Source: a virus | Taxonomy: Duplodnaviria > Caudoviricetes | DNA: 37,003 nt | Direction: 5' to 3' (one strand) | IMG/VR virus record: IMGVR_UViG_3300032253_000016 | Span: 1-37,003 of that record | In this document: positions 5,083 through 32,142 of the stretch, in pieces | Numbering within the stretch: the first letter of the stretch is position 1 | How the letters are laid out: the number at the start of each line of letters is the position of its first letter | Program-made: the position numbers and the translations under genes | Notes under the pieces: model-generated | Database searches by the model: none | What the model saw: only the letters and a program-made list of their open reading frames with translations | What the model was told of the DNA's origin: nothing

Positions 5083-6804
5083 ATGCAACAAACAACTCAA
5101 AAAATCGAATTAGTGGAAGGACAAGTTAGCCAAATTCCTTTAGAACTCATCGACAGAGATGAAAATCAACCACGAACGCATTTCGATTCAGACTGGCTAA
5201 AAGAGCTGGGCGCAGACATTAAAAAAAATAGCGTACAACAACCTGTTACGTTGCGTCCTAATCCAAAGGCAACAGGTCGCTACATAATCGTTTATGGAGA
5301 AAACCGCGTTAACGCTAGTCGTCTCGTTAAAATGCCAACTGTTCCTGCACTGCTTTACAAAGGAAAAACAGAAGGAAAAACCGCAGACCTAGAACTACTA
5401 CTCAGCCAAGTAAAAGAAAATACTTTACGTAAAGAATTGAACGCAATGGACTGGGCACACTTATTTCATACCATGAATAAAGAACACGGTATGACACAAC
5501 CACAAATTGAAGCATCACTTAAAAAACATGGTGTGGGTAATTATGGACGCAGTTATATCTCCAACATCATCATGCTTCGCAAACTGCCTGATTGGGCGCA
5601 AGAAATGGTGCGCAATGAAACTATAACACCAGCACACGGTAAGTACTTATTACCGGCAATGGTCAGTGAAGAAGTCAGCGCAAATATTAAAACGAAATTT
5701 GAAAGTGACGAAAAATGGACGCCGACCGTACGTGAATTACAAAATGAAATATATATAAAATTTGTCCGTCAGCACGATGAAATTACGGGGTTCAAAACTA
5801 ACTTCGATTATAAAAAGAAGTGCATAGCTTCAGGTTGCAAAAACAATTGCAAAATTAGTGCTGATGAAACCAACGGAATTTTTTGTTTAGACAAAAAGTG
5901 CTACTCAAAACTTCAAGCTAAAGAAGAACAAAAACGACAAAAAGCAATTCAGCGACAAAAAGATAAAGAAGAAAACAAAGAACCTGTTGAAGTAAAAGCA
6001 GATAAAAAAAATCGTGTTGATACACGACAGCTTGAATTATGTCCTGAATATTTCCCTCTAGAAGATGCTGAATTCAATAAAACTGAATGTGAAAACTGTC
6101 CTCATAATCATATAGCAATATCAGAAGGACAATTCCAAGAAGACAATGACGTTATTGAGCAAAACGCATGCTTCAATGAACCTTGCTTTGATAAAAAGGA
6201 AGAACTGCACAGCCAGGCTACTCGAACCATTGAGCATCACATGCTTAAACAAGTTGTTAACATGTTAAAAGATGAACCTGCGTTAGCGTTGAGGGTTATG
6301 GCGTGGATTGCATCTGATTGTCCAGATGGAATAAGACAACAAAAAGATGATGAGTATATAAGCTTTGACGGTTCTCCATGTCCAGCTGATGAAGAGGACT
6401 TTGAAAAAATTCTTTTCAAACATCAATTGTTTTCAGTGTCACAATTTTTAACTGTGGATGAAAAAGCTATCCCAGATCTTCTTGAAGTCATAATTATCGA
6501 AAGCTGGCTAAGTCGTCAACTAATTGAAGTGCTATGGAAGCGGTTCAAATATGAAATAACTGACTTTAAATTAGATGTTGAATACATAAATACGCTTCGC
6601 GAAAAAGAGCTTCGCGCGCTAGTAGAAAACACCTCTGACCTCCCTCCTGCTGTCTTTGCCGATCTTAATACTGAAGGTACAAATGAAAATATTGATTCAT
6701 TACGTAAAAAAGTCATTAGTCATTTAAAGTTTTTTAAAGCGCCGGTTAATGATCTTCATCATGCTTATCAAACTATGACAAAAGAAGGAGAATCTAATGT
6801 TTAA
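5083..6804 (+). CDS. Large ParB/RepB/Spo0J-family protein with Cys-rich central domain
   Basis: N-terminal IPLELIDRDENQPRTHFD, QPVTLR, YIIVYGENR and EN..R..LN ParB motifs plus HTH; two Cys4 clusters downstream. Confidence 0.88.
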   Translation: MQQTTQKIELVEGQVSQIPLELIDRDENQPRTHFDSDWLKELGADIKKNSVQQPVTLRPNPKATGRYIIVYGENRVNASRLVKMPTVPALLYKGKTEGKTADLELLLSQVKENTLRKELNAMDWAHLFHTMNKEHGMTQPQIEASLKKHGVGNYGRSYISNIIMLRKLPDWAQEMVRNETITPAHGKYLLPAMVSEEVSANIKTKFESDEKWTPTVRELQNEIYIKFVRQHDEITGFKTNFDYKKKCIASGCKNNCKISADETNGIFCLDKKCYSKLQAKEEQKRQKAIQRQKDKEENKEPVEVKADKKNRVDTRQLELCPEYFPLEDAEFNKTECENCPHNHIAISEGQFQEDNDVIEQNACFNEPCFDKKEELHSQATRTIEHHMLKQVVNMLKDEPALALRVMAWIASDCPDGIRQQKDDEYISFDGSPCPADEEDFEKILFKHQLFSVSQFLTVDEKAIPDLLEVIIIESWLSRQLIEVLWKRFKYEITDFKLDVEYINTLREKELRALVENTSDLPPAVFADLNTEGTNENIDSLRKKVISHLKFFKAPVNDLHHAYQTMTKEGESNV

Positions 6805-7839: not shown

Positions 7840-8064
7840 ATGACAATCCACCTTACAGAGCAAGAGTTATACGACATTACTCACAAAGTACGCTATCGTG
7901 CTCAATCAAAGGCGCTGGCACAAATGGGAATTGATTTTAAACTTCGCCCAGATGGGTCTATACTCGTCAGTAGGTCATGTTATGAATCTAGCATGGGTGG
8001 AAGTTCAACAACTAAAAAGGTATTGGCTGCGCCAGATTTCAGCTCATTATTGAATGTCTCCTAA
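7840..8064 (+). CDS. Putative excisionase (DUF4224-like)
   Basis: LTEQELYDIT...AQ..AL..MGI.F..RPDG...V and C-terminal PDFS; overlaps the integrase start. Confidence 0.85.
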   Translation: MTIHLTEQELYDITHKVRYRAQSKALAQMGIDFKLRPDGSILVSRSCYESSMGGSSTTKKVLAAPDFSSLLNVS

Positions 8065-9127
8065 AAAACGTAACAGTGAGAATACCCCATTACCAAAGCG
8101 GTGGCGATTAAAAAATGGCGCTTATCGTTACCGCGTCCCCCCTGGTTTAGAACATCTTTGGGACGGAAAAAAAGAATTTCGATTAGGTGCAACATTATCA
8201 GAAGCATATCGCACCTGGTCAGAACGACTTGAAACAACAGACCCAATTAATACTATCGATCAGTTGATGGATAGGTATATGCTCGAAGTTATCCCAGAAA
8301 AGGCTACCGGTTCACAAGAATCCAACTTACACAGTATTAAAAAGTTACGCCCTGTTTTTGGAAAAATGCCCCCCGCTCTTATCGAACCACAACACGCATA
8401 TAAATATCACGATATGGCCTCAAAGAAAAATGGTAAAACCGTGGCCAAGCATGACATTCAATTATTAAGACACTTACTAACAAAAGCAGTGGAATGGGGG
8501 GTGATAAAAACAAACCCGTTGCTCGGGCAAGTTCGTTTACCCGTTACGCTGCCACGAGATCGGTTTGTAGAAGATTGGGAAATAGAAGAAGCCTTATCGT
8601 TAACCCCTAAAATAAAGTCACGCGCAGTCACTCTCGCCAAATTATATGTGCGTTTCAAACTAATGACCGGCCTAAGAAGATGGGATATTTTAAAACTAAA
8701 AATATCCCAAATTAAAGATGATGGCATTCACGTTCAACCAACAAAAACAAAGAATACAACTGGCAAGCGTTTGATATTTGAATGGGATGAAGAAGGCGAA
8801 ATGCGCAATCTTATTGATGACATATTAAAGCTGCCCCCCCGCAGAATTGGTGATGTTTGTTTGTTTACAACGCGACAAGGAAAGTCATACATAAACAACC
8901 AGGGTAAAGCAAACGCATTCGATAGTTTGTGGCAGCGTTATATGAACAGGGTAATAGAACTCACAAATGTAGAAGATAAATTCCAAGAACGCGACCTGCG
9001 CGCTAAGGTTGCAAGCGACTCAGAAACCCTCCAAGAAGCCAGCGAACGGCTTGGTCACGGCACCACAGAAACCACGAACAAAGTTTATCGGCGCAAGCCT
9101 CTTCGCATAAAACCGCTCATAAAATAG
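8054..9127 (+). CDS. int: Tyrosine integrase
   Basis: Arm-binding N-terminus, TGLRRWD (Arg I), K, RDLRAK, LGH and VYRR catalytic motifs; adjacent to attP. Confidence 0.95.
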   Translation: MSPKKRNSENTPLPKRWRLKNGAYRYRVPPGLEHLWDGKKEFRLGATLSEAYRTWSERLETTDPINTIDQLMDRYMLEVIPEKATGSQESNLHSIKKLRPVFGKMPPALIEPQHAYKYHDMASKKNGKTVAKHDIQLLRHLLTKAVEWGVIKTNPLLGQVRLPVTLPRDRFVEDWEIEEALSLTPKIKSRAVTLAKLYVRFKLMTGLRRWDILKLKISQIKDDGIHVQPTKTKNTTGKRLIFEWDEEGEMRNLIDDILKLPPRRIGDVCLFTTRQGKSYINNQGKANAFDSLWQRYMNRVIELTNVEDKFQERDLRAKVASDSETLQEASERLGHGTTETTNKVYRRKPLRIKPLIK

Positions 9128-9230: not shown

Positions 9231-9277
9231 TGGTGCGCCTGGCACGATTCGAACGTGCGACCGCTCGGTTCGTAGCC
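9231..9277 (-). other. attP core: 3' half of tRNA-Arg(ACG)
   Basis: Minus strand GGCTACGAACCGAGCGGTCGCACGTTCGAATCGTGCCAGGCGCACCA: anticodon loop ACG, T-arm GTTCGAATC, CCA end; no 5' half upstream. Confidence 0.92.
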
Positions 9278-26039: not shown

Positions 26040-27950
26040 TTATGAGTTAATGCAGAATGACTCAGAATGTCCGATAGCAACATCGGCATCCTGGAACACG
26101 CGTAACACTAAACCACCCGAACTAGCTTTCGCCGCAGTGTCTGGGTTAACGTCAAGTACGCCCCACATACCAATCATTAAGTCTTGCCAGTTACCAAACG
26201 CCATTTCGTTTGCAGCTAATTGGCTGGTAACAGAAAGCGGATGACCGTTAGCCTCGTTGTTGTCCCCCATTAAGAACATACCGCTACCTGCATCTTTTGG
26301 CGTGGTCTTCAAGTTGCCTCGAACACCTGCTGTCGTGACGTAAGCGAGTTTGCCTTGTAGCGCATCATCTGCCGCTACCGCCGTTTCAAAACCAACAAGT
26401 TCAGACCATGTTGGCTTACCTGCTGTCGCGATAGCTTGTGTGTTGATGCCGGTTAAATTAAAGATACCGTGAGGTTGATTATTTGTTCCTGTACCTTTCA
26501 ACGCACCGATATCCAGCGCTAAAGCAGCACCGCGAAGCAATGAGTTTTGTACTAAGCTTTCAACACTTAAGCTAGATTGTTTAAGCAAGCGTCGAGACAT
26601 AGGAACAGCACCAGCCAGTGTCTTTGGTGACATCTTGATTGTGCCAAAGCTACCTTCGCTATCTGGCACATCATCATCATCATCTAACCAATGAAATGTT
26701 GGCGTTAATAGTTCTCGTGGAATTTCAAGATTGCCCATAAGGCCGTCAATGACAGTTGCACCTAAACCCATCACCACTGAATTAGGGCGAAGAGCCTCGA
26801 TGAACATGCCTTCCATGTGTTCCGTTGCAATTAAATCAGCAGCATTGCCTGAGTTAAGAGCACGTGCATGCATCATGTTCAATTGTTGCATTTGCATTTG
26901 GCGAGAAGCGCTAACCATAATGTCTAGCGGTACAAAGAAACCTTTTGCATCACGATCTAATCGTTCAGAAATTTCGCGAGAGCACTCCATTTCAAATGCA
27001 GCTTCCTTTTGCATGTAAGAGTTATCGCCTTCTTTAGCCGCGACCACTGCACGAATAGCTTTAAACAAACTATAGCTACGTGTTTCTTTATCAGACAAAC
27101 CAAGGTCAGCAGCTGCTTCACCTGTACCAGCACGACCTTCATCCACTAAGTTATCTAAAATAGCTTTGCGGAATTCATCAGGTGAGTTGCCATTTTTAAT
27201 ATGAACATCGGCTAAACCGCGCGCACCATGATCAGCAAAACGCTCAGCCATAGACATAATGTCAGCAACACGAGTTCGTTCTGCTTCCCGAGCAGCGTTT
27301 CGCACTTCTTCTACTTTAACCGTTGGAGCAGTAGACGTTGTTTCTGCTGCACGGGTTGTTGATTCCGTGCCGCCTTTATTTTTATCTTTTTCAGACATAG
27401 TTCTTTCCTCAATTTCAATATCAAAATTAAAGGTGGCGGCACGACCGACACCCACGGTTGTATCAGCCGGTATAGGTAACAGGCTAATTTCATACGGTTC
27501 CCAATCAACAGCTCGATATATATCAGTACTATCATCACTGCTTTCCTCAAGAACCACTTTATGGACACGATAACCAACAGAGACATGCACCAACACGCCA
27601 TCTAAAACATCGCGAAATTTTTCATCGGCTAAAGTGGAATTTCCAAAACGAACGAGTGCGGTGCCTCGACGATTTTCAATTTTTACATTTTCGATTACAC
27701 CAATATGTTGTCCCCAGTCATGGAGGAATAACAAAGGTCCGCTATTACGCAACCGCTCTAAACGAACAGAGTCAGGAGAGTGATCAAGTATTTCAATGCC
27801 ATATCCATATCGATGCCATCCTTCAACCTCATCAGTCTCAGAAGAAAATGACAGTTCTACAGTGCGATCTTCCTCATTAACTGACTCACGTTTTAATAAA
27901 AAATTACGCTGAAATAATTCTTTGCTATTAATCGTTTTATTTTTTGACAT
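26040..27950 (-). CDS. Prohead protease-major capsid fusion (HK97 fold)
   Basis: N-terminal ELSFSSE, PLLFLHD, VSVGY and WEPYEISLLPIPAD protease motifs; C-terminal SPKT.AG...SRRLLKQS, G.G....P.GI and FGNW capsid motifs; start ATG 27950. Confidence 0.95.
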   Translation of the reverse strand: MSKNKTINSKELFQRNFLLKRESVNEEDRTVELSFSSETDEVEGWHRYGYGIEILDHSPDSVRLERLRNSGPLLFLHDWGQHIGVIENVKIENRRGTALVRFGNSTLADEKFRDVLDGVLVHVSVGYRVHKVVLEESSDDSTDIYRAVDWEPYEISLLPIPADTTVGVGRAATFNFDIEIEERTMSEKDKNKGGTESTTRAAETTSTAPTVKVEEVRNAAREAERTRVADIMSMAERFADHGARGLADVHIKNGNSPDEFRKAILDNLVDEGRAGTGEAAADLGLSDKETRSYSLFKAIRAVVAAKEGDNSYMQKEAAFEMECSREISERLDRDAKGFFVPLDIMVSASRQMQMQQLNMMHARALNSGNAADLIATEHMEGMFIEALRPNSVVMGLGATVIDGLMGNLEIPRELLTPTFHWLDDDDDVPDSEGSFGTIKMSPKTLAGAVPMSRRLLKQSSLSVESLVQNSLLRGAALALDIGALKGTGTNNQPHGIFNLTGINTQAIATAGKPTWSELVGFETAVAADDALQGKLAYVTTAGVRGNLKTTPKDAGSGMFLMGDNNEANGHPLSVTSQLAANEMAFGNWQDLMIGMWGVLDVNPDTAAKASSGGLVLRVFQDADVAIGHSESFCINS

Positions 27951-29502
27951 CAGACTCATCCTCTTCATTCTTTTTTGCGTTAGTCGTTGCCTTTGGCACA
28001 ATCGGTAACGTTATTTTTTTGTCTTCTAACATTTGTTGAAATTCTGCGATTTCATCTAGCAACTCGTCGATATCTACGCCCAAGGTGTCAGCTGCACGTT
28101 GCGGTGATGTCAAGCCAGCATTAATTGCCATGACAGTTGCTTGAATGTCTTTAAGTGGATCAACCCACGCCCAACGACGACCTTTCCAGTGGTGTTCACT
28201 GAATCTTTCTAATGCAATATCTTGAGGTAAGTTGTCACCAACACGACCATTAAGAACGGCCATGTTTAACCAACGCATAAAGATGACTTCTAATACGCCA
28301 GCGGCAAAGCTATCTTGCTTTACTTTCCAGCTTTCACGTTCTTCTAACGAACCAGAACGAATAGAAGAAAAACTAACCGACTCTAAATCACCCGTTAACG
28401 AGTGATAAGAAACATCTAGCCCCATCGCAATATCATGTTGATTAACTTTTAAAAAAGAGCCGTAAGCTTCATGAGGATACTTTGGGTCAAAGCCTGTAAA
28501 GCCATAACCTTCAGGCAGCATACCGATTGTGCCGGGATCAAACTCTTCAATAAGATCGGTATCATCACCTTCGCCCTCTTGATTATCAGCAACTGCATGA
28601 GCATTACCATCTGGGCTAGTATAAAAACCCATTTTACTTGCACCGGCGCGAGCCGCGACAATTGCCGCTTCTTGATATTCTTCAATATGATTCATTGTTA
28701 ACATCGCGCTACACATCCAGGTAGCAGCACGCAATTGTTCTGGTCGCTCTGAATTGAACCAATGAATTAAATTCTCAGCAGGAACACGCTCATGTTTTTC
28801 ATCGTGATTTATAAGCCCATCACGCTTACCACGTTTCAACCAATACGCTACAGGTCTATTTGCTTGATTCAGCTCAACACCTAATCGAACACGATTACCA
28901 TTTTTTAAATCTTCATTTAAGCGATGGTCAAGACGAGCAGGATCTAACAGCTCAACAACGAAACCCCAGGGGTTTCTTCGCGAAGGTTTAACATCATGCA
29001 TGCGTATTAAGCATTCACCATCACGGGCAGCTGTACGAATAGAAATACGTTCTATTTCTTTAAACGAATGACGCCCGCTAATTTCACAAACACCACGCTT
29101 CGCCCATTTTTTGAATTCGCTTTCAGTTTGTTTATTTCCTTTAGAATCTAATTTTCCATTTTTCTGTTTGCCTTTAACTTGCAAGTTAAAACCATCAGGA
29201 CCAACAATATGAATTTCATTTAAACGAAGGAAGCGGCGAGCAAGGTTACTGTTCTGTTCTTGTGAACGAGCACGAGCGCGTAATATATGAAGTTGAGTTT
29301 TTAGTTCTTGATTAATATCACCGCCAGCAGATAACCAGTCAGCAGTTAAGCGATCTCTATTTGCTGCTTTGAATGCGCGCTTAACTAAACGATGAGGTAA
29401 AGAGTAACGTAAATTACGAGGAGTCGAAGCCACCTTAACAACTTCTTGCTTGGAAGAATTATAAAATGGATTTCTAAGTTTAAGCATTGCATGATTATGC
29501 AA
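27937..29502 (-). CDS. Portal protein, lambda family
   Basis: LRARAR, RDGEC, RLGVELN...RPVAYW, RPEQLR, FSSIRSG.LEER and WAWVDPLKD motifs; start may be ATG 29487. Confidence 0.95.
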   Translation of the reverse strand: MHNHAMLKLRNPFYNSSKQEVVKVASTPRNLRYSLPHRLVKRAFKAANRDRLTADWLSAGGDINQELKTQLHILRARARSQEQNSNLARRFLRLNEIHIVGPDGFNLQVKGKQKNGKLDSKGNKQTESEFKKWAKRGVCEISGRHSFKEIERISIRTAARDGECLIRMHDVKPSRRNPWGFVVELLDPARLDHRLNEDLKNGNRVRLGVELNQANRPVAYWLKRGKRDGLINHDEKHERVPAENLIHWFNSERPEQLRAATWMCSAMLTMNHIEEYQEAAIVAARAGASKMGFYTSPDGNAHAVADNQEGEGDDTDLIEEFDPGTIGMLPEGYGFTGFDPKYPHEAYGSFLKVNQHDIAMGLDVSYHSLTGDLESVSFSSIRSGSLEERESWKVKQDSFAAGVLEVIFMRWLNMAVLNGRVGDNLPQDIALERFSEHHWKGRRWAWVDPLKDIQATVMAINAGLTSPQRAADTLGVDIDELLDEIAEFQQMLEDKKITLPIVPKATTNAKKNEEDESDVKK

Positions 29503-29551
29503 TAGCTATTTGAGACGGTTATATCACTTTTTAAAAAATATTTTTAATAAA

Positions 29552-29612
29552 ACATAACAGTCGCATAAGTCAGACCTCGCTATGCTCGGCTACTTATGAC
29601 TTGGTGTTATAA
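29552..29612 (+). repeat. attC-like site 1
   Basis: ACATAAC agtcg CATAAGT c AG a CC...GG CT ACTTATG acttggt GTTATAA. Confidence 0.78.
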
Positions 29613-29813
29613 GTCACTCGTTATCTTGAAAGTAAACGGCTCATTTGGTTTTTCGTGTTCGCGTATCGCGGCGTCTAGCTCTCGTAAATCTTCAATAATT
29701 TGTGACTCAGCAAATTTTTCTAGGCTTACAAAATAGTTTTTGTTTTTTGTTGAGTCGTTTCCGGTAACTATGTAGCCGTTGTCAATTCGCTCTATTGTTA
29801 CATCAATATTCAT
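29607..29813 (-). CDS. Cassette A hypothetical protein (68 aa)
   Basis: GGAGG RBS; I.IERIDNGYIV motif common in small phage proteins; stop TAA lies within R' of attC1. Confidence 0.8.
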   Translation of the reverse strand: MNIDVTIERIDNGYIVTGNDSTKNKNYFVSLEKFAESQIIEDLRELDAAIREHEKPNEPFTFKITSDL

Positions 29814-29833
29814 CTTGCCTCCGTGGTAACGCC

Positions 29834-29896
29834 TTATAACAAGGCGTTTAAAAATCGGACGCGATAAAGCCGCGCCGTTTAACTAAAACGTTATGT
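29834..29896 (+). repeat. attC-like site 2
   Basis: TTATAAC aaggc GTTTAAA aat CGG A CGCG ataaagc CGCG CCG TTTAAC taaaac GTTATGT; extra T in L'' and extra A in GGAC. Confidence 0.9.
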
Positions 29897-30175
29897 GTCC
29901 TTATGCTGATATAAAACACTTCCATCAACATTAAATATTTTCATTTTCCAATACGGGTGGCAGTTACGAACGCGGCCATCTGAATTAAACTTTACGTTTA
30001 AGTTTGCCGAACCATTGCCGCCAAAAACAACACCTTCTTCTTCGTCAACAGTGCATCGAGTTCCTTTTTTAATTTTCGGCAACCCTCTGTACTCGCATAC
30101 ATCATTAATTGCTGTTTGTGTGTTAGCCACTTTAATCTCCCGCAACGCTACGCGATGCTGTTCGTGTTCACGCAC
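29891..30175 (-). CDS. Cassette B hypothetical protein (94 aa)
   Basis: YRGLP..KKG.R....G.V...L.V.F......HP.W pattern seen in small phage proteins; stop within R' of attC2. Confidence 0.75.
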   Translation of the reverse strand: MREHEQHRVALREIKVANTQTAINDVCEYRGLPKIKKGTRCTVDEEEGVVFGGNGSANLNVKFNSDGRVRNCHPYWKMKIFNVDGSVLYQHKDT

Positions 30176-30209
30176 AAGCTGTCGCTAGTGCTTGGTTAAA
30201 ACTAAAACC

Positions 30210-30267
30210 ACATAACAAAACGCTCAAGAAATGGACGGCTTCGCCGCCACTTAGCTTTGCGTTATAA
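30210..30267 (+). repeat. attC-like site 3
   Basis: ACATAAC aaaac GCTCAAG aaa TGG A CGGC ttc GCCG CCA CTTAGC tttgc GTTATAA; canonical extra C in L'' and extra A. Confidence 0.92.
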
Positions 30268-30365
30268 CTCTTACCAGCAAAGCCGCAATAAAGCGGCTTA
30301 CCGGAAGTTGTCAACCTCTAAGGGCGTTACCCCTGCGTTATCATTTTCTTATCCTCTTGTATGAG

Positions 30366-30425
30366 TTAAAAAAATATTACGTCTTACTTCTTACACCCAA
30401 AAACCCCAATTAAGGGGCGTTATGC
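30366..30425 (+). repeat. Decayed attC-like site 4
   Basis: Intact right end CCCCAATTAAGGGGC-GTTATGC; left end GAGTTAAAAA versus expected GAGTTATAAC at the right spacing (60 bp); inner arms no longer pair. Confidence 0.45.
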
Positions 30426-30716
30426 ACCACATCCACATGGTGATCTTCCTACACCAACATCTACAAACCCTGTTCCGTGACAGTTTTCGCATGAGTCAAC
30501 CCACGCTTCAATTTCACGCCATGTCGATTCATACATAGGCCAATCTTTTTCTACAACAACACACTCAACCTCTGATTTTGCGCCTGTATCAATGTCGGGT
30601 TGTTTTGCGATTGACAGAGCTATAACAATATTTTCTAACTCTTCTTTCGCTTCATCGGTTAAATATTTTTCAATATCTTTACGCTTTAAAACTAAATATC
30701 TATTTTCTCTTTGCAT
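30420..30716 (-). CDS. Cassette D hypothetical protein (98 aa) with C-terminal zinc finger
   Basis: MQRENRYLVLKRKD...CVVVEKDWPMYE..W plus CENCHGTG...CGC; ATG 30716 lies in R'' of attC5 and the stop in R' of attC4. Confidence 0.8.
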   Translation of the reverse strand: MQRENRYLVLKRKDIEKYLTDEAKEELENIVIALSIAKQPDIDTGAKSEVECVVVEKDWPMYESTWREIEAWVDSCENCHGTGFVDVGVGRSPCGCGA

Positions 30717-30771
30717 AAAAAGCCCCTCTAGTTGATTTCTCAGTCGCAACAACTGAGCTTATGAGTTATGT
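30713..30771 (+). repeat. attC-like site 5 (R'' core mutated)
   Basis: GCATAAa aagcc cCTC T AGTTG ... CAACT GAG cttatga GTTATGT; TAAC has become TAAA. Confidence 0.68.
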
Positions 30772-31080
30772 GTGTGTTTTCTCGATTAATATAAAAGATA
30801 AATCAAGATAACTTTTACCGCTTAAGCTCATTGTCCATACCTGCCGATTATGTAGGCGCATTGTTGGACCATCACCAATAAGCTTTAAAGCAAATTTACT
30901 GAGTATCGACTCTATTACATCAAAAGGTGTATCTGGTTGATCGATCCAAGGAACACATATCAAGTCAAAGTCACTCGCCATTGAACCATGAACAGCCATT
31001 GCGTAACCGTGCAATCTGGCAATCTCTGCAAGCTTTGGATACATACTGCAATATAAAGGCGCATAATTAGCTTCTTTCAC
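30766..31080 (-). CDS. Minimal nucleotidyltransferase-like protein
   Basis: GYAMAVHGSMASDFDLICVPW matches the GSx(n)DxD polymerase-beta superfamily motif; GTG start in TAGTG overlap; stop in R' of attC5. Confidence 0.6.
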   Translation of the reverse strand: MKEANYAPLYCSMYPKLAEIARLHGYAMAVHGSMASDFDLICVPWIDQPDTPFDVIESILSKFALKLIGDGPTMRLHNRQVWTMSLSGKSYLDLSFILIEKTHT

Positions 31081-31388
31081 TAAACCCAGTACCATGTTTC
31101 ACGTTCTTCGATCTGAATAATGGTTCTTTCGTGCACGTGATACATCTTTGCTATAGCACACCGCGACAATTCTTTTTTTTCAATATGTGCTTTAATTTCC
31201 TTAACGCTTTTCGTAGTTAGTTTCGCCTGTGGTTTTGGCGCTCGAACACGATGCGTATTCATTGCGCGAAAAAATGTGGCACGAGATACATCAGCTAATC
31301 TTGCCGCCACAGTTCTGTTTAATGTAGCTATATCAAGATACATCATGACTTCACCTTTACTTAAAGCAACTTGTCCAGCAACAGGCAT
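31080..31388 (-). CDS. Double-HTH DNA-binding protein
   Basis: NRTVAARLADVSRATFFR (Fis-like HTH) and AKLT...IAKMYHVHERTI..I..R..W (second HTH). Confidence 0.72.
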   Translation of the reverse strand: MPVAGQVALSKGEVMMYLDIATLNRTVAARLADVSRATFFRAMNTHRVRAPKPQAKLTTKSVKEIKAHIEKKELSRCAIAKMYHVHERTIIQIEERETWYWV

Positions 31389-31597
31389 TAGAATCTCCTC
31401 GTTGTTATATCTGATGGGCTTATGTGATCGTTAATGTCGTAAACAGTGTCTTGCCAATAAAACAATATTTCATCACCATCAATACCGCCTAAAGTTACGC
31501 ATACATAAGACGACCCTGTGTCATAAACGCCAGGAGGTATTTCCCCTTTCATGATTTTATCTTCAAGCGCTCTTTCGATAATCTGGCAGGCATTCAT
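31388..31597 (-). CDS. Hypothetical protein (69 aa)
   Basis: TAATG overlaps with both neighbours. Confidence 0.6.
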   Translation of the reverse strand: MNACQIIERALEDKIMKGEIPPGVYDTGSSYVCVTLGGIDGDEILFYWQDTVYDINDHISPSDITTRRF

Positions 31598-32142
31598 TAT
31601 CTGAATCTCACTTTAACGCTGCGTGGCACGCGATCACCACGTTTAATGGCTGCTTGACGATCTTCGGTCGCTACTTCTGATTTATATTTATCACGCGCCA
31701 TAATTAACTGCTCTGGTTTACGCTCGATGGTTCGATCTCCAAAAGTACCTCGTATCATATCCAAGTCAGCTTTTGTTGCTCGATTTTCTAGAGCAGCTTC
31801 TAATGCTTCTAACATTTTGCGAGCGTGGCTACGTCCATCGTAAGGTGTTCCCTTGGATGGATCAGGCGTTATGATGATGACGCCTTGATTAATCACTTTA
31901 CGTTCATTGGCTGTGTTGGTTACATAAGCTGTCCAATCATATCGGCCTGGAATCCAAGCGGTTGTAACCGACGCTAATAAATTAACAGCATGGTCATCAT
32001 CACTGGCAGACGCATCAAAGTTATAAGCATTTGCTGCATTAAATAATGCGTAATGTAATGTCCATACACTTGCTGGATAATCAGGCAATGTAGCTGTCCA
32101 TTCAGCATTATCACCAACGGCTATTTTTTTTGGTTCACTCAT
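31597..32142 (-). CDS. Head completion / head-tail adaptor protein (gpW-like C-terminus)
   Basis: Follows TerL; DGRSHARKMLEALEA.LE.RA...I.R.....L...RD.YK.EV...V.VRF. Confidence 0.75.
   Translation of the reverse strand: MSEPKKIAVGDNAEWTATLPDYPASVWTLHYALFNAANAYNFDASASDDDHAVNLLASVTTAWIPGRYDWTAYVTNTANERKVINQGVIIITPDPSKGTPYDGRSHARKMLEALEAALENRATKADLDMIRGTFGDRTIERKPEQLIMARDKYKSEVATEDRQAAIKRGDRVPRSVKVRFR

Follow-up and report, generated by a model that had tools for sequence, protein, structure and literature searches.

The temperate myophage whose 37,003-bp sequence is analysed here (the window) carries, between head genes and its portal gene, a small array of integron cassettes that is devoid of an integrase gene and in which the cargo genes are inverted relative to their attC sites. 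Sequence comparison lends good support to the view that an integron integrase, acting in trans, moved these cassettes, whereas for the more specific proposal, that the array was built in place by such an enzyme and that the enzyme was most likely encoded by a prophage, for example the one on contig G001, we see about an even chance. The sites of the array comprise two canonical attC sites (B and C), one atypical site (A), one decayed site (E) and one remnant (D).

The integrase and repressor genes of the phage are on the plus strand, and the terminase, head-tail joining, portal, capsid and tail genes on the minus strand. The head-tail joining gene (31597..32142, minus strand; phrog_5774) is followed by a 69-aa gene, a conserved 102-aa HTH gene (31080..31388, minus), a 109-aa gene that ends in R' of site E (30766..31095, minus; phrog_35913), the array, and a portal gene of the lambda family (27937..29487, minus; PF05136, phrog_21). 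In relatives the HTH gene forms the upstream boundary of a variable interval that is bounded downstream by the portal gene. No attC belonging to the 109-aa gene itself was found, the covariance model described below giving no match to its right. The tyrosine integrase (8054..9127, plus) is 63% identical to the prophage integrase of G001, matches no NCBIfam family, including TIGR02249, and lacks similarity to IntI, in agreement with the initial annotation, which had seen no IntI-type insertion in it. A 45-bp attachment core (9231..9275, plus) corresponds to the 3' part of tRNA-Arg ACG and is identical to two copies in G001. The window contains no DNA or protein match to the intI or attI region of G001 and is thus, unlike G001, no complete integron. 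Rfam and ARAGORN gave no matches over the window, and a repeat finder reported no family owing to the high divergence among the sites. Over the entire window the minus strand is rich in G, which may indicate that the bottom strand is the lagging-strand template, an arrangement linked to higher excision (PMC8946536, accessible text), but coding bias is a confounding factor, and we take the observation as no more than a lead.

Bare TAAC..GTTA cores are weak evidence when taken alone (30 in the window vs 21 ± 5 expected), and a scanner that scores pairing did not discriminate, with 8 window matches vs 6.6 per shuffle. The scanner was therefore used only for collecting training sites, and a covariance model of the attC bottom strand (R1) was built from 24 sites, all from outside the window: nine from published phage and prophage arrays, three from the relative L004 and 12 from viral contigs. 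A rebuilt model (R2) was trained on many of the sites at cargo-homologue loci, so that its scores there are not independent. Over 37 kb, R1 gave significant matches to sites B and C only, in both cases with the bottom strand on the window minus strand. Site B (29833..29897, top strand plus) obtained 33.8 bits with R1 (E 7.4e-5) and 35.9 bits with R2, and site C (30209..30268, top strand plus) 28.9 bits (E 7.7e-4) and 33.5 bits, with a fold z of -3.2; on the plus strand R2 matched a 20-nt fragment at B with 8.5 bits and C with 7.3 bits. Both sites possess the R'' (TAAC) and R' (GTT) cores, the 5-6-nt spacers, the paired L boxes and a length within the range of about 57-141 bp by which attC sites were defined, and their L'' bulge and second bulge again assign the bottom strand to the window minus strand. 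Since these two significant sites are 313 bp apart and no intI is nearby, the array has the composition of a CALIN (at least two clustered attC sites), although the stricter default site count of IntegronFinder might not be reached.

The other three sites are less regular. Site A (29551..29613, plus) is an attC-like hairpin (z -1.4) with both cores present, a deviating spacer register and no L'' bulge in the canonical place; its R2 score of 11.8 bits is not significant (E = 2.1 over the window), and among viral contigs its motif is present in this phage only. Its G|TT at 29606 nevertheless is the left crossover of cassette B. Site E (30712..30772, plus), aligned to intact sites in L040 and L084, has a 13-bp loop deletion and an R'' changed from TAAC to TAAA; it scores 9-11 bits in the model, which is not significant, and is classified as a decayed attC because it shares 20 identical bp with an intact G001 site. 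Site D (30360-30426) has no attC-like fold (z +0.7) and gives no covariance-model match even at E 10, and it retains R' plus a terminator-like hairpin on the minus strand (30403-30418). It belongs to a gene-less unit of 158 bp (30262..30419) that ends at the R' core at 30419 and in which no R'' was found; a second TAAC..GTTA hairpin in this unit (30265-30329, z -2.2) may be its real attC remnant. Hence, of the three intact and two decayed sites described in the initial annotation, B and C stand as canonical and E as decayed; the model check proposed there is significant for B and C and not for A, D and E, A being atypical and D without attC fold or match. Contigs from a further run, X5, are about 90% similar to parts of the 158-bp unit (window 30275-30351 and 30394-30420) and have the terminator-like block in a different order; the unit may be a mobile regulatory module.

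The crossover G's are located at 29606, 29890, 30261, 30419 and 30765 and delimit units of 284, 371, 158 and 346 bp, exactly as originally proposed. The claim that each R'' complements the R' of the previous site rather than its own holds as well: the pairing with the previous R' is 8/8 for B, 8/8 for C and 7/8 for E, vs 6/8, 5/8 and 5/8 with the own R'. If the array consisted of terminators or chance palindromes next to ordinary morons, one would expect the terminator-like character that three of the sites or hairpins show on the minus strand, and cores by themselves are common; the significant model matches and the pairing with the previous R' are not accounted for in this way.

Cassette B (29607..29890, plus) contains a 68-aa gene (29607..29813, minus) for a phage-type hypothetical protein without Pfam, PHROG or PADLOC match; its stop codon TAA lies inside R' of site A. 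The 78-aa gene of cassette C (unit 29891-30261; gene 29891..30127, minus; weak matches to phrog_6245 and phrog_2730) stops inside R' of site B, and the 98-aa gene of cassette E, the 346-bp unit, (30420..30716, minus; phrog_7810) has its start codon ATG within R'' of site E and its stop within R' at 30419. A close homologue of the 98-aa protein begins with V-M-Q and the window version with F-M-Q, which would fit an original GTT in R'' of site E. None of the cargo proteins has a Pfam or PADLOC match, and matches in the Atlas are to unnamed clusters only; the cargo is composed of small phage-type proteins.

Thus each of the three cargo genes is encoded by the attC bottom strand and has its stop codon in R'. 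Bacterial cassettes show the opposite arrangement, and the initial annotation overlooked this point. The location of the ORF on the attC top strand, where it is read from Pc, is a typical but not obligatory trait of cassettes, and it is found in none of the three. The longest plus-strand ORFs in the cassettes encode only 36, 57 and 38 aa, and the minus-strand proteins have 16-37 database matches each. In bacterial integrons, recombination of the bottom strand places the gene under Pc (PMC5027507), so that the window array has the mirror layout. The polarity given by the model is anchored by forward arrays: TJE1, M16-3 and the Vibrio sites of L037, the latter mostly outside the training set, were scored on their bottom strands. 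Among 47 loci searched, mostly loci of cargo homologues, 44 of 46 model matches, in nine loci, were on the coding strand of the homologue; many of the 46 are training sites, the seven in L050 (all on the coding strand) are outside the R2 training set, and L048 was left out (30 of 31 loci searched). Recombination of the top strand (R'') of attC is a known route to a backwards cassette (Nivina et al. 2016, PMC5027507). As the source of the inversion it was rejected by reasoning, since it flips gene and attC together and would not produce genes opposed to the bulges of their own attC, as in the window.

Homologues of the 68-aa gene are bounded by inverted attC sites at both of the two other loci where they occur (at L041 on one side only), those of the 98-aa gene at 3 of 31 loci and those of the 78-aa gene at 4 of 13; at the other 28 of 31 and 9 of 13 loci there is no adjacent attC and the homologues are ordinary phage genes. 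One copy of the 68-aa gene, at locus L040 on contig G001, is identical to that of the window. The identity extends over 243 bp from the crossover G (29606-29848), with no matching base to its left, and the neighbours of cassette B differ on both sides, so that the same unit is found among different neighbours and is cut at G|TT. Yet G001 is a different phage, its portal protein being 36% and its terminase 28% identical to those of the window. The bodies are identical, whereas the attC sites paired with cassette B show 10 differences in a stretch of 41 bp, among which one compensatory pair was recognised by eye. These two sites are still each other's closest, with 39/49 identical interior positions vs 37/52 for the next. 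Identical bodies with 10 attC differences are not explained by a single clean excision and insertion from today's G001; probably, the attC interior was exchanged with that of a sister site, by an R'' cut or by gene conversion. A blastn search of the array against the phage collection gave chance-level matches only. A 45,060-bp contig in the protein index encodes all three cargo proteins or their 90% cluster mates and could be a longer or variant form of the window phage.

The sequencing runs X1-X4 may be the source of the window DNA and are not independent of its sequence. Both the window phage and G001 are present in X3 and X4, and in each of these the 243-bp body is one common contig, with a depth of 164 (X3) and 129 (X4) vs 76 and 46 for the window phage and 31-43 and 56-59 for G001, which is somewhat above the sum of both phages. 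The body is thus a branch point in two assembly graphs, as would be seen if the shared cassette were an assembly chimera. Against this, the flank depths in X4 pair up (46/47 and 56/59), and in X1, a run almost devoid of G001, positions 28900-30261 are covered by a single contig without any difference, from which it follows that the window arrangement is not chimeric. The explanation by terminators, chance palindromes or a chimera is largely refuted and, in our judgement, very improbable. The depth at the B-C junction in X3 is 98 vs 76, and this extra depth on cassettes B and C suggests a third carrier, which could be the true donor.

The same runs bear on present activity. For the array of the window, no joint that skips a cassette and no circle junction of 29890 with 29607 was detected in the contigs of the four runs, which drop rare variants; neither the predicted excision products nor the ongoing gain, loss and shuffling of genes claimed earlier for this phage is thus seen. 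A joint of 29853 to 29606 was rejected as a circle, as it equals the upstream attC of G001. At the crossover, one X1 contig lacks exactly 295 bp of the G001 array, corresponding to one cassette (depth 3, one contig), which is a weak indication of cassette excision in G001. Another contig, from X3, follows site B and departs from the window sequence after 29894, at the crossover, and one contig of low depth departs after 29611.

The IntI protein of G001 matches TIGR02249 with 423 bits (cut-off 265) and, by reading, has all catalytic residues. Its gene is located in the early operon, between an antirepressor and a methyltransferase-integrase block, and is divergent from the attC top strand; it is followed by an attI-like G|TT, identified by position only, and by six inverted cassettes, in all of which 7-8 of 8 positions pair between R'' and the previous R'. 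Compared with the IntI proteins of the phage collection, the enzyme reaches at most 46% identity. IntI-like proteins are also encoded on further viral contigs, namely L098:4878-5963 (48% identical to that of G001), which has no attC match, and KX853513 (40%). G001 ends in a full tRNA-Arg(ACG), and copies of the att core (L088-L090) are found at 81-125, 5375-5419 and 42446-42522; the two internal copies equal the 45-bp core of the window, and the tRNA copy differs by one base. The three copies imply that multiple elements stack at the tRNA-Arg site. A 5.3-kb island with its own integrase is present in tandem with the IntI prophage at this one tRNA. From the att core we infer a shared host of the window phage and G001; a search for it by tRNA gave a best match of 94% among 400 genomes scored, with one genome left unscored. 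Because G001 combines an IntI gene and six inverted cassettes with the same att core and presence in the same runs, the best candidate for the enzyme is phage-encoded rather than host-encoded.

The initial annotation had proposed that a host integron integrase acts in trans. Movement in trans is borne out by the exact G|TT breakpoint relative to G001 and by cargo homologues in attC-bounded cassettes elsewhere; a host origin of the enzyme is not, as the only IntI tied to the cassette pool is encoded by a prophage with the same att core. That the array was built by a chromosomal IntI of the host is nevertheless consistent with several observations. Phage attC sites recombine with the bacterial IntI1 in 5 of 6 cases (PMC9892861, accessible part), an attC similar to site C is found on contigs with a depth of up to 282, and a loose end after 30265 resembles the start of a forward, bacterial-type cassette; furthermore, a gammaproteobacterial genome with a remnant of this phage clade (G006), one of two genomes compared, has two IntI proteins over the cut-off, and L004 carries forward defence-type cassettes directly after the HTH gene. 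However, no host IntI is linked to the window phage, and its three cargo cassettes are all inverted and phage-type, like those of G001 and unlike the forward defence cassettes of L004. We consider a host enzyme unlikely.

The HTH gene is found in seven distinct relatives, and the interval that follows it is different in all seven. In L029 the portal gene comes directly after the HTH gene, in L002 a methyltransferase gene, in L005 two genes, in L023 a promoter and a gene before the contig ends, and in L026/L028 the tail genes of a remnant. L032 has one gene between GTTAGC and GCTAAC, which form a perfect hairpin (z -4.2); the hairpin is symmetric and its model score is not significant, so that no polarity can be assigned. 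L004 contains four forward cassettes with defence-type cargo and its contig ends before any portal gene. Thus attC-type sites occur at the locus in two of the seven relatives (L004 and L032). The proposed hotspot is partly supported in that the interval varies in every relative, but the relatives are too distant (portal at best 78% identical) for mapping of breakpoints, and in the collections searched no close relative with different content at the locus was found. A G|TT at 29518 was rejected as an unproven left boundary of the array, since L002, a relative devoid of attC, has the same stretch conserved before its portal gene. Immediately in front of the portal gene, a short motif is common, in a weak alignment, to window 29490-29525, L002:4380-4410 and L032:2745-2770; it may be a portal promoter, which would explain a tolerance of insertions upstream of the portal gene. 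The segment L004:7214-11391 (G003) encodes a terminase, a head-tail protein and the HTH protein, followed by the forward cassettes, of which the cargo includes a DRT8-like reverse transcriptase, an FRG/PDC-S15-like protein and a CapP/ImmA-like peptidase. The L026/L028 remnant (G006) consists of a truncated head-tail gene, the HTH gene and tail genes without head genes, adjoins an adenylate kinase gene in a gammaproteobacterial genome, and looks like a domesticated tail cluster.

It is also conceivable that a block of the array of an IntI phage was captured once, by homologous or illegitimate recombination, after shuffling in the donor, and that it is now a decaying relic. Such an event would agree with the lack of an attI, with the atypical or decayed state of sites A, D and E, with the lack of excision joints in the four runs, with the non-cassette genes that occupy the interval in four of the seven relatives (L002, L005, L023 and L026/L028), and with the raised B-C junction depth in X3, as if this junction were present elsewhere too. 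On the other hand, cassette B is 100% identical to its G001 copy while E is decayed, which means that the units differ in age; the youngest unit is at the end where IntI inserts and has an exact G|TT boundary; and L004 and L032 independently have attC-type sites at the same spot. We therefore rate a single capture as rather unlikely.

Stepwise construction by an IntI in trans, the preferred explanation, could have proceeded as follows. In a doubly infected or doubly lysogenic cell, the IntI of G001 would excise a cassette as a circle by attC x attC recombination, and the circle would then be inserted at a folded attC of the window phage; the direction of transfer and the sharing of one host cell are what we infer from the comparison. 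Because no attI was found, the founding cassette may have entered at a genomic G|TT in an attG-type event. Incoming cassettes would be added on the portal side of the array, in keeping with the age gradient, in which B is identical to the donor copy, C is intact, and D and E are decayed. Transcription of the inverted genes is predicted to come from read-through of the terminase/head operon, which would make a Pc promoter dispensable, with the R boxes supplying stop codons and, for the cargo of E, the start codon. In this inverted layout, the strand that recombines would also be the one not used as template in transcription. Two or three of the five sites are atypical or decayed, which counts against an active array, and activity at present is disfavoured by the lack of an attI, the lack of skip or circle joints in four runs and the decay at the distal end.

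On a broader scale, prophage-encoded IntI enzymes could circulate mirror-image cassettes among unrelated phages of one host, with integrase-less phages as freeloaders and with attC interiors being swapped between gene bodies; such a phage-run integron network is a tentative and rather doubtful extrapolation. The storage of anti-phage genes is one of the tasks attributed to integrons, which are regarded as devices of bacteria. In the present case, phages appear to be the beneficiaries of integron chemistry, the cassettes being fitted to phage operons, and this chemistry would offer a site-specific route to phage mosaicism. One community provides a testable set, in which an IntI and its attI-like site are joined by a second phage with the identical cassette and by a common attachment site, so that phage-to-phage transfer of cassettes in trans can be tested directly. 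That a gene body is unchanged while its attC has been swapped is relevant to the unsettled origin of cassettes and, if true, the exchange of attC interiors would be a visible step in the making of new cassettes.

Clusters of attC sites without integrase are already known from phages, so that the array is less novel than the initial annotation suggests; phage CALINs were published by Qi, Rajabal, Ghaly, Tetu and Gillings (2023; PMC9892861). Like the window array, these combine small phage genes with two or more attC sites in 3 kb and contain no intI; the sites, of 57-65 bp, have the same architecture as those validated with IntI1. In the accessible text of that paper there is no mention of the polarity of ORFs relative to attC, of a phage-encoded IntI that acts on a second phage, or of two phages with an identical cassette. 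With the covariance model, TJE1 and M16-3 are forward and ctTUS972 and PH101 inverted, and no match was found in the first 40 kb each of NC_025466 and HQ632860; for PH101 attC1, validated with IntI1, the bottom strand given in Table S3 of Qi et al. is the PH101 coding strand. The attC sites of PH101 (L101:25919-27987) are inside longer duplicated non-coding modules, again with the bottom strand as coding strand. Systematic inversion of cassettes or phage-to-phage transfer by a phage IntI was not described in the openly accessible literature covered; the accessible parts of PMC4889954 and PMC8876359 mention neither inverted phage cassettes nor transfer by a phage IntI. Inverted polarity was thus not found in print, though two of the phages of Qi et al. 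show it.

Regarding mechanism, Loot et al. (bioRxiv 10.1101/2022.09.11.507474) report that IntI can insert cassettes at genomic sites outside attI, termed attG, and propose that small CALINs originate in this way. Insertion at attG fits a founding event in the window array as well as the single unit in L032, but the described attG sites and SALINs concern bacterial chromosomes and forward cassettes. The R'' cut known from Nivina et al. (PMC5027507) could also account for the swapped attC interior of cassette B. Complete integrons occur in the Shewanella prophage M16-3 and in Vibrio phage Va_90-11-286_p16, both temperate (PMC9892861). G001 resembles these as a prophage with a row of cassettes, an attI-like site and an IntI gene that diverges from the attC top strand. 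Their arrays are forward and are described, in the accessible text, as captured from or close to chromosomal integrons, whereas in G001 the intI gene is part of the phage early operon and the cassettes are inverted.
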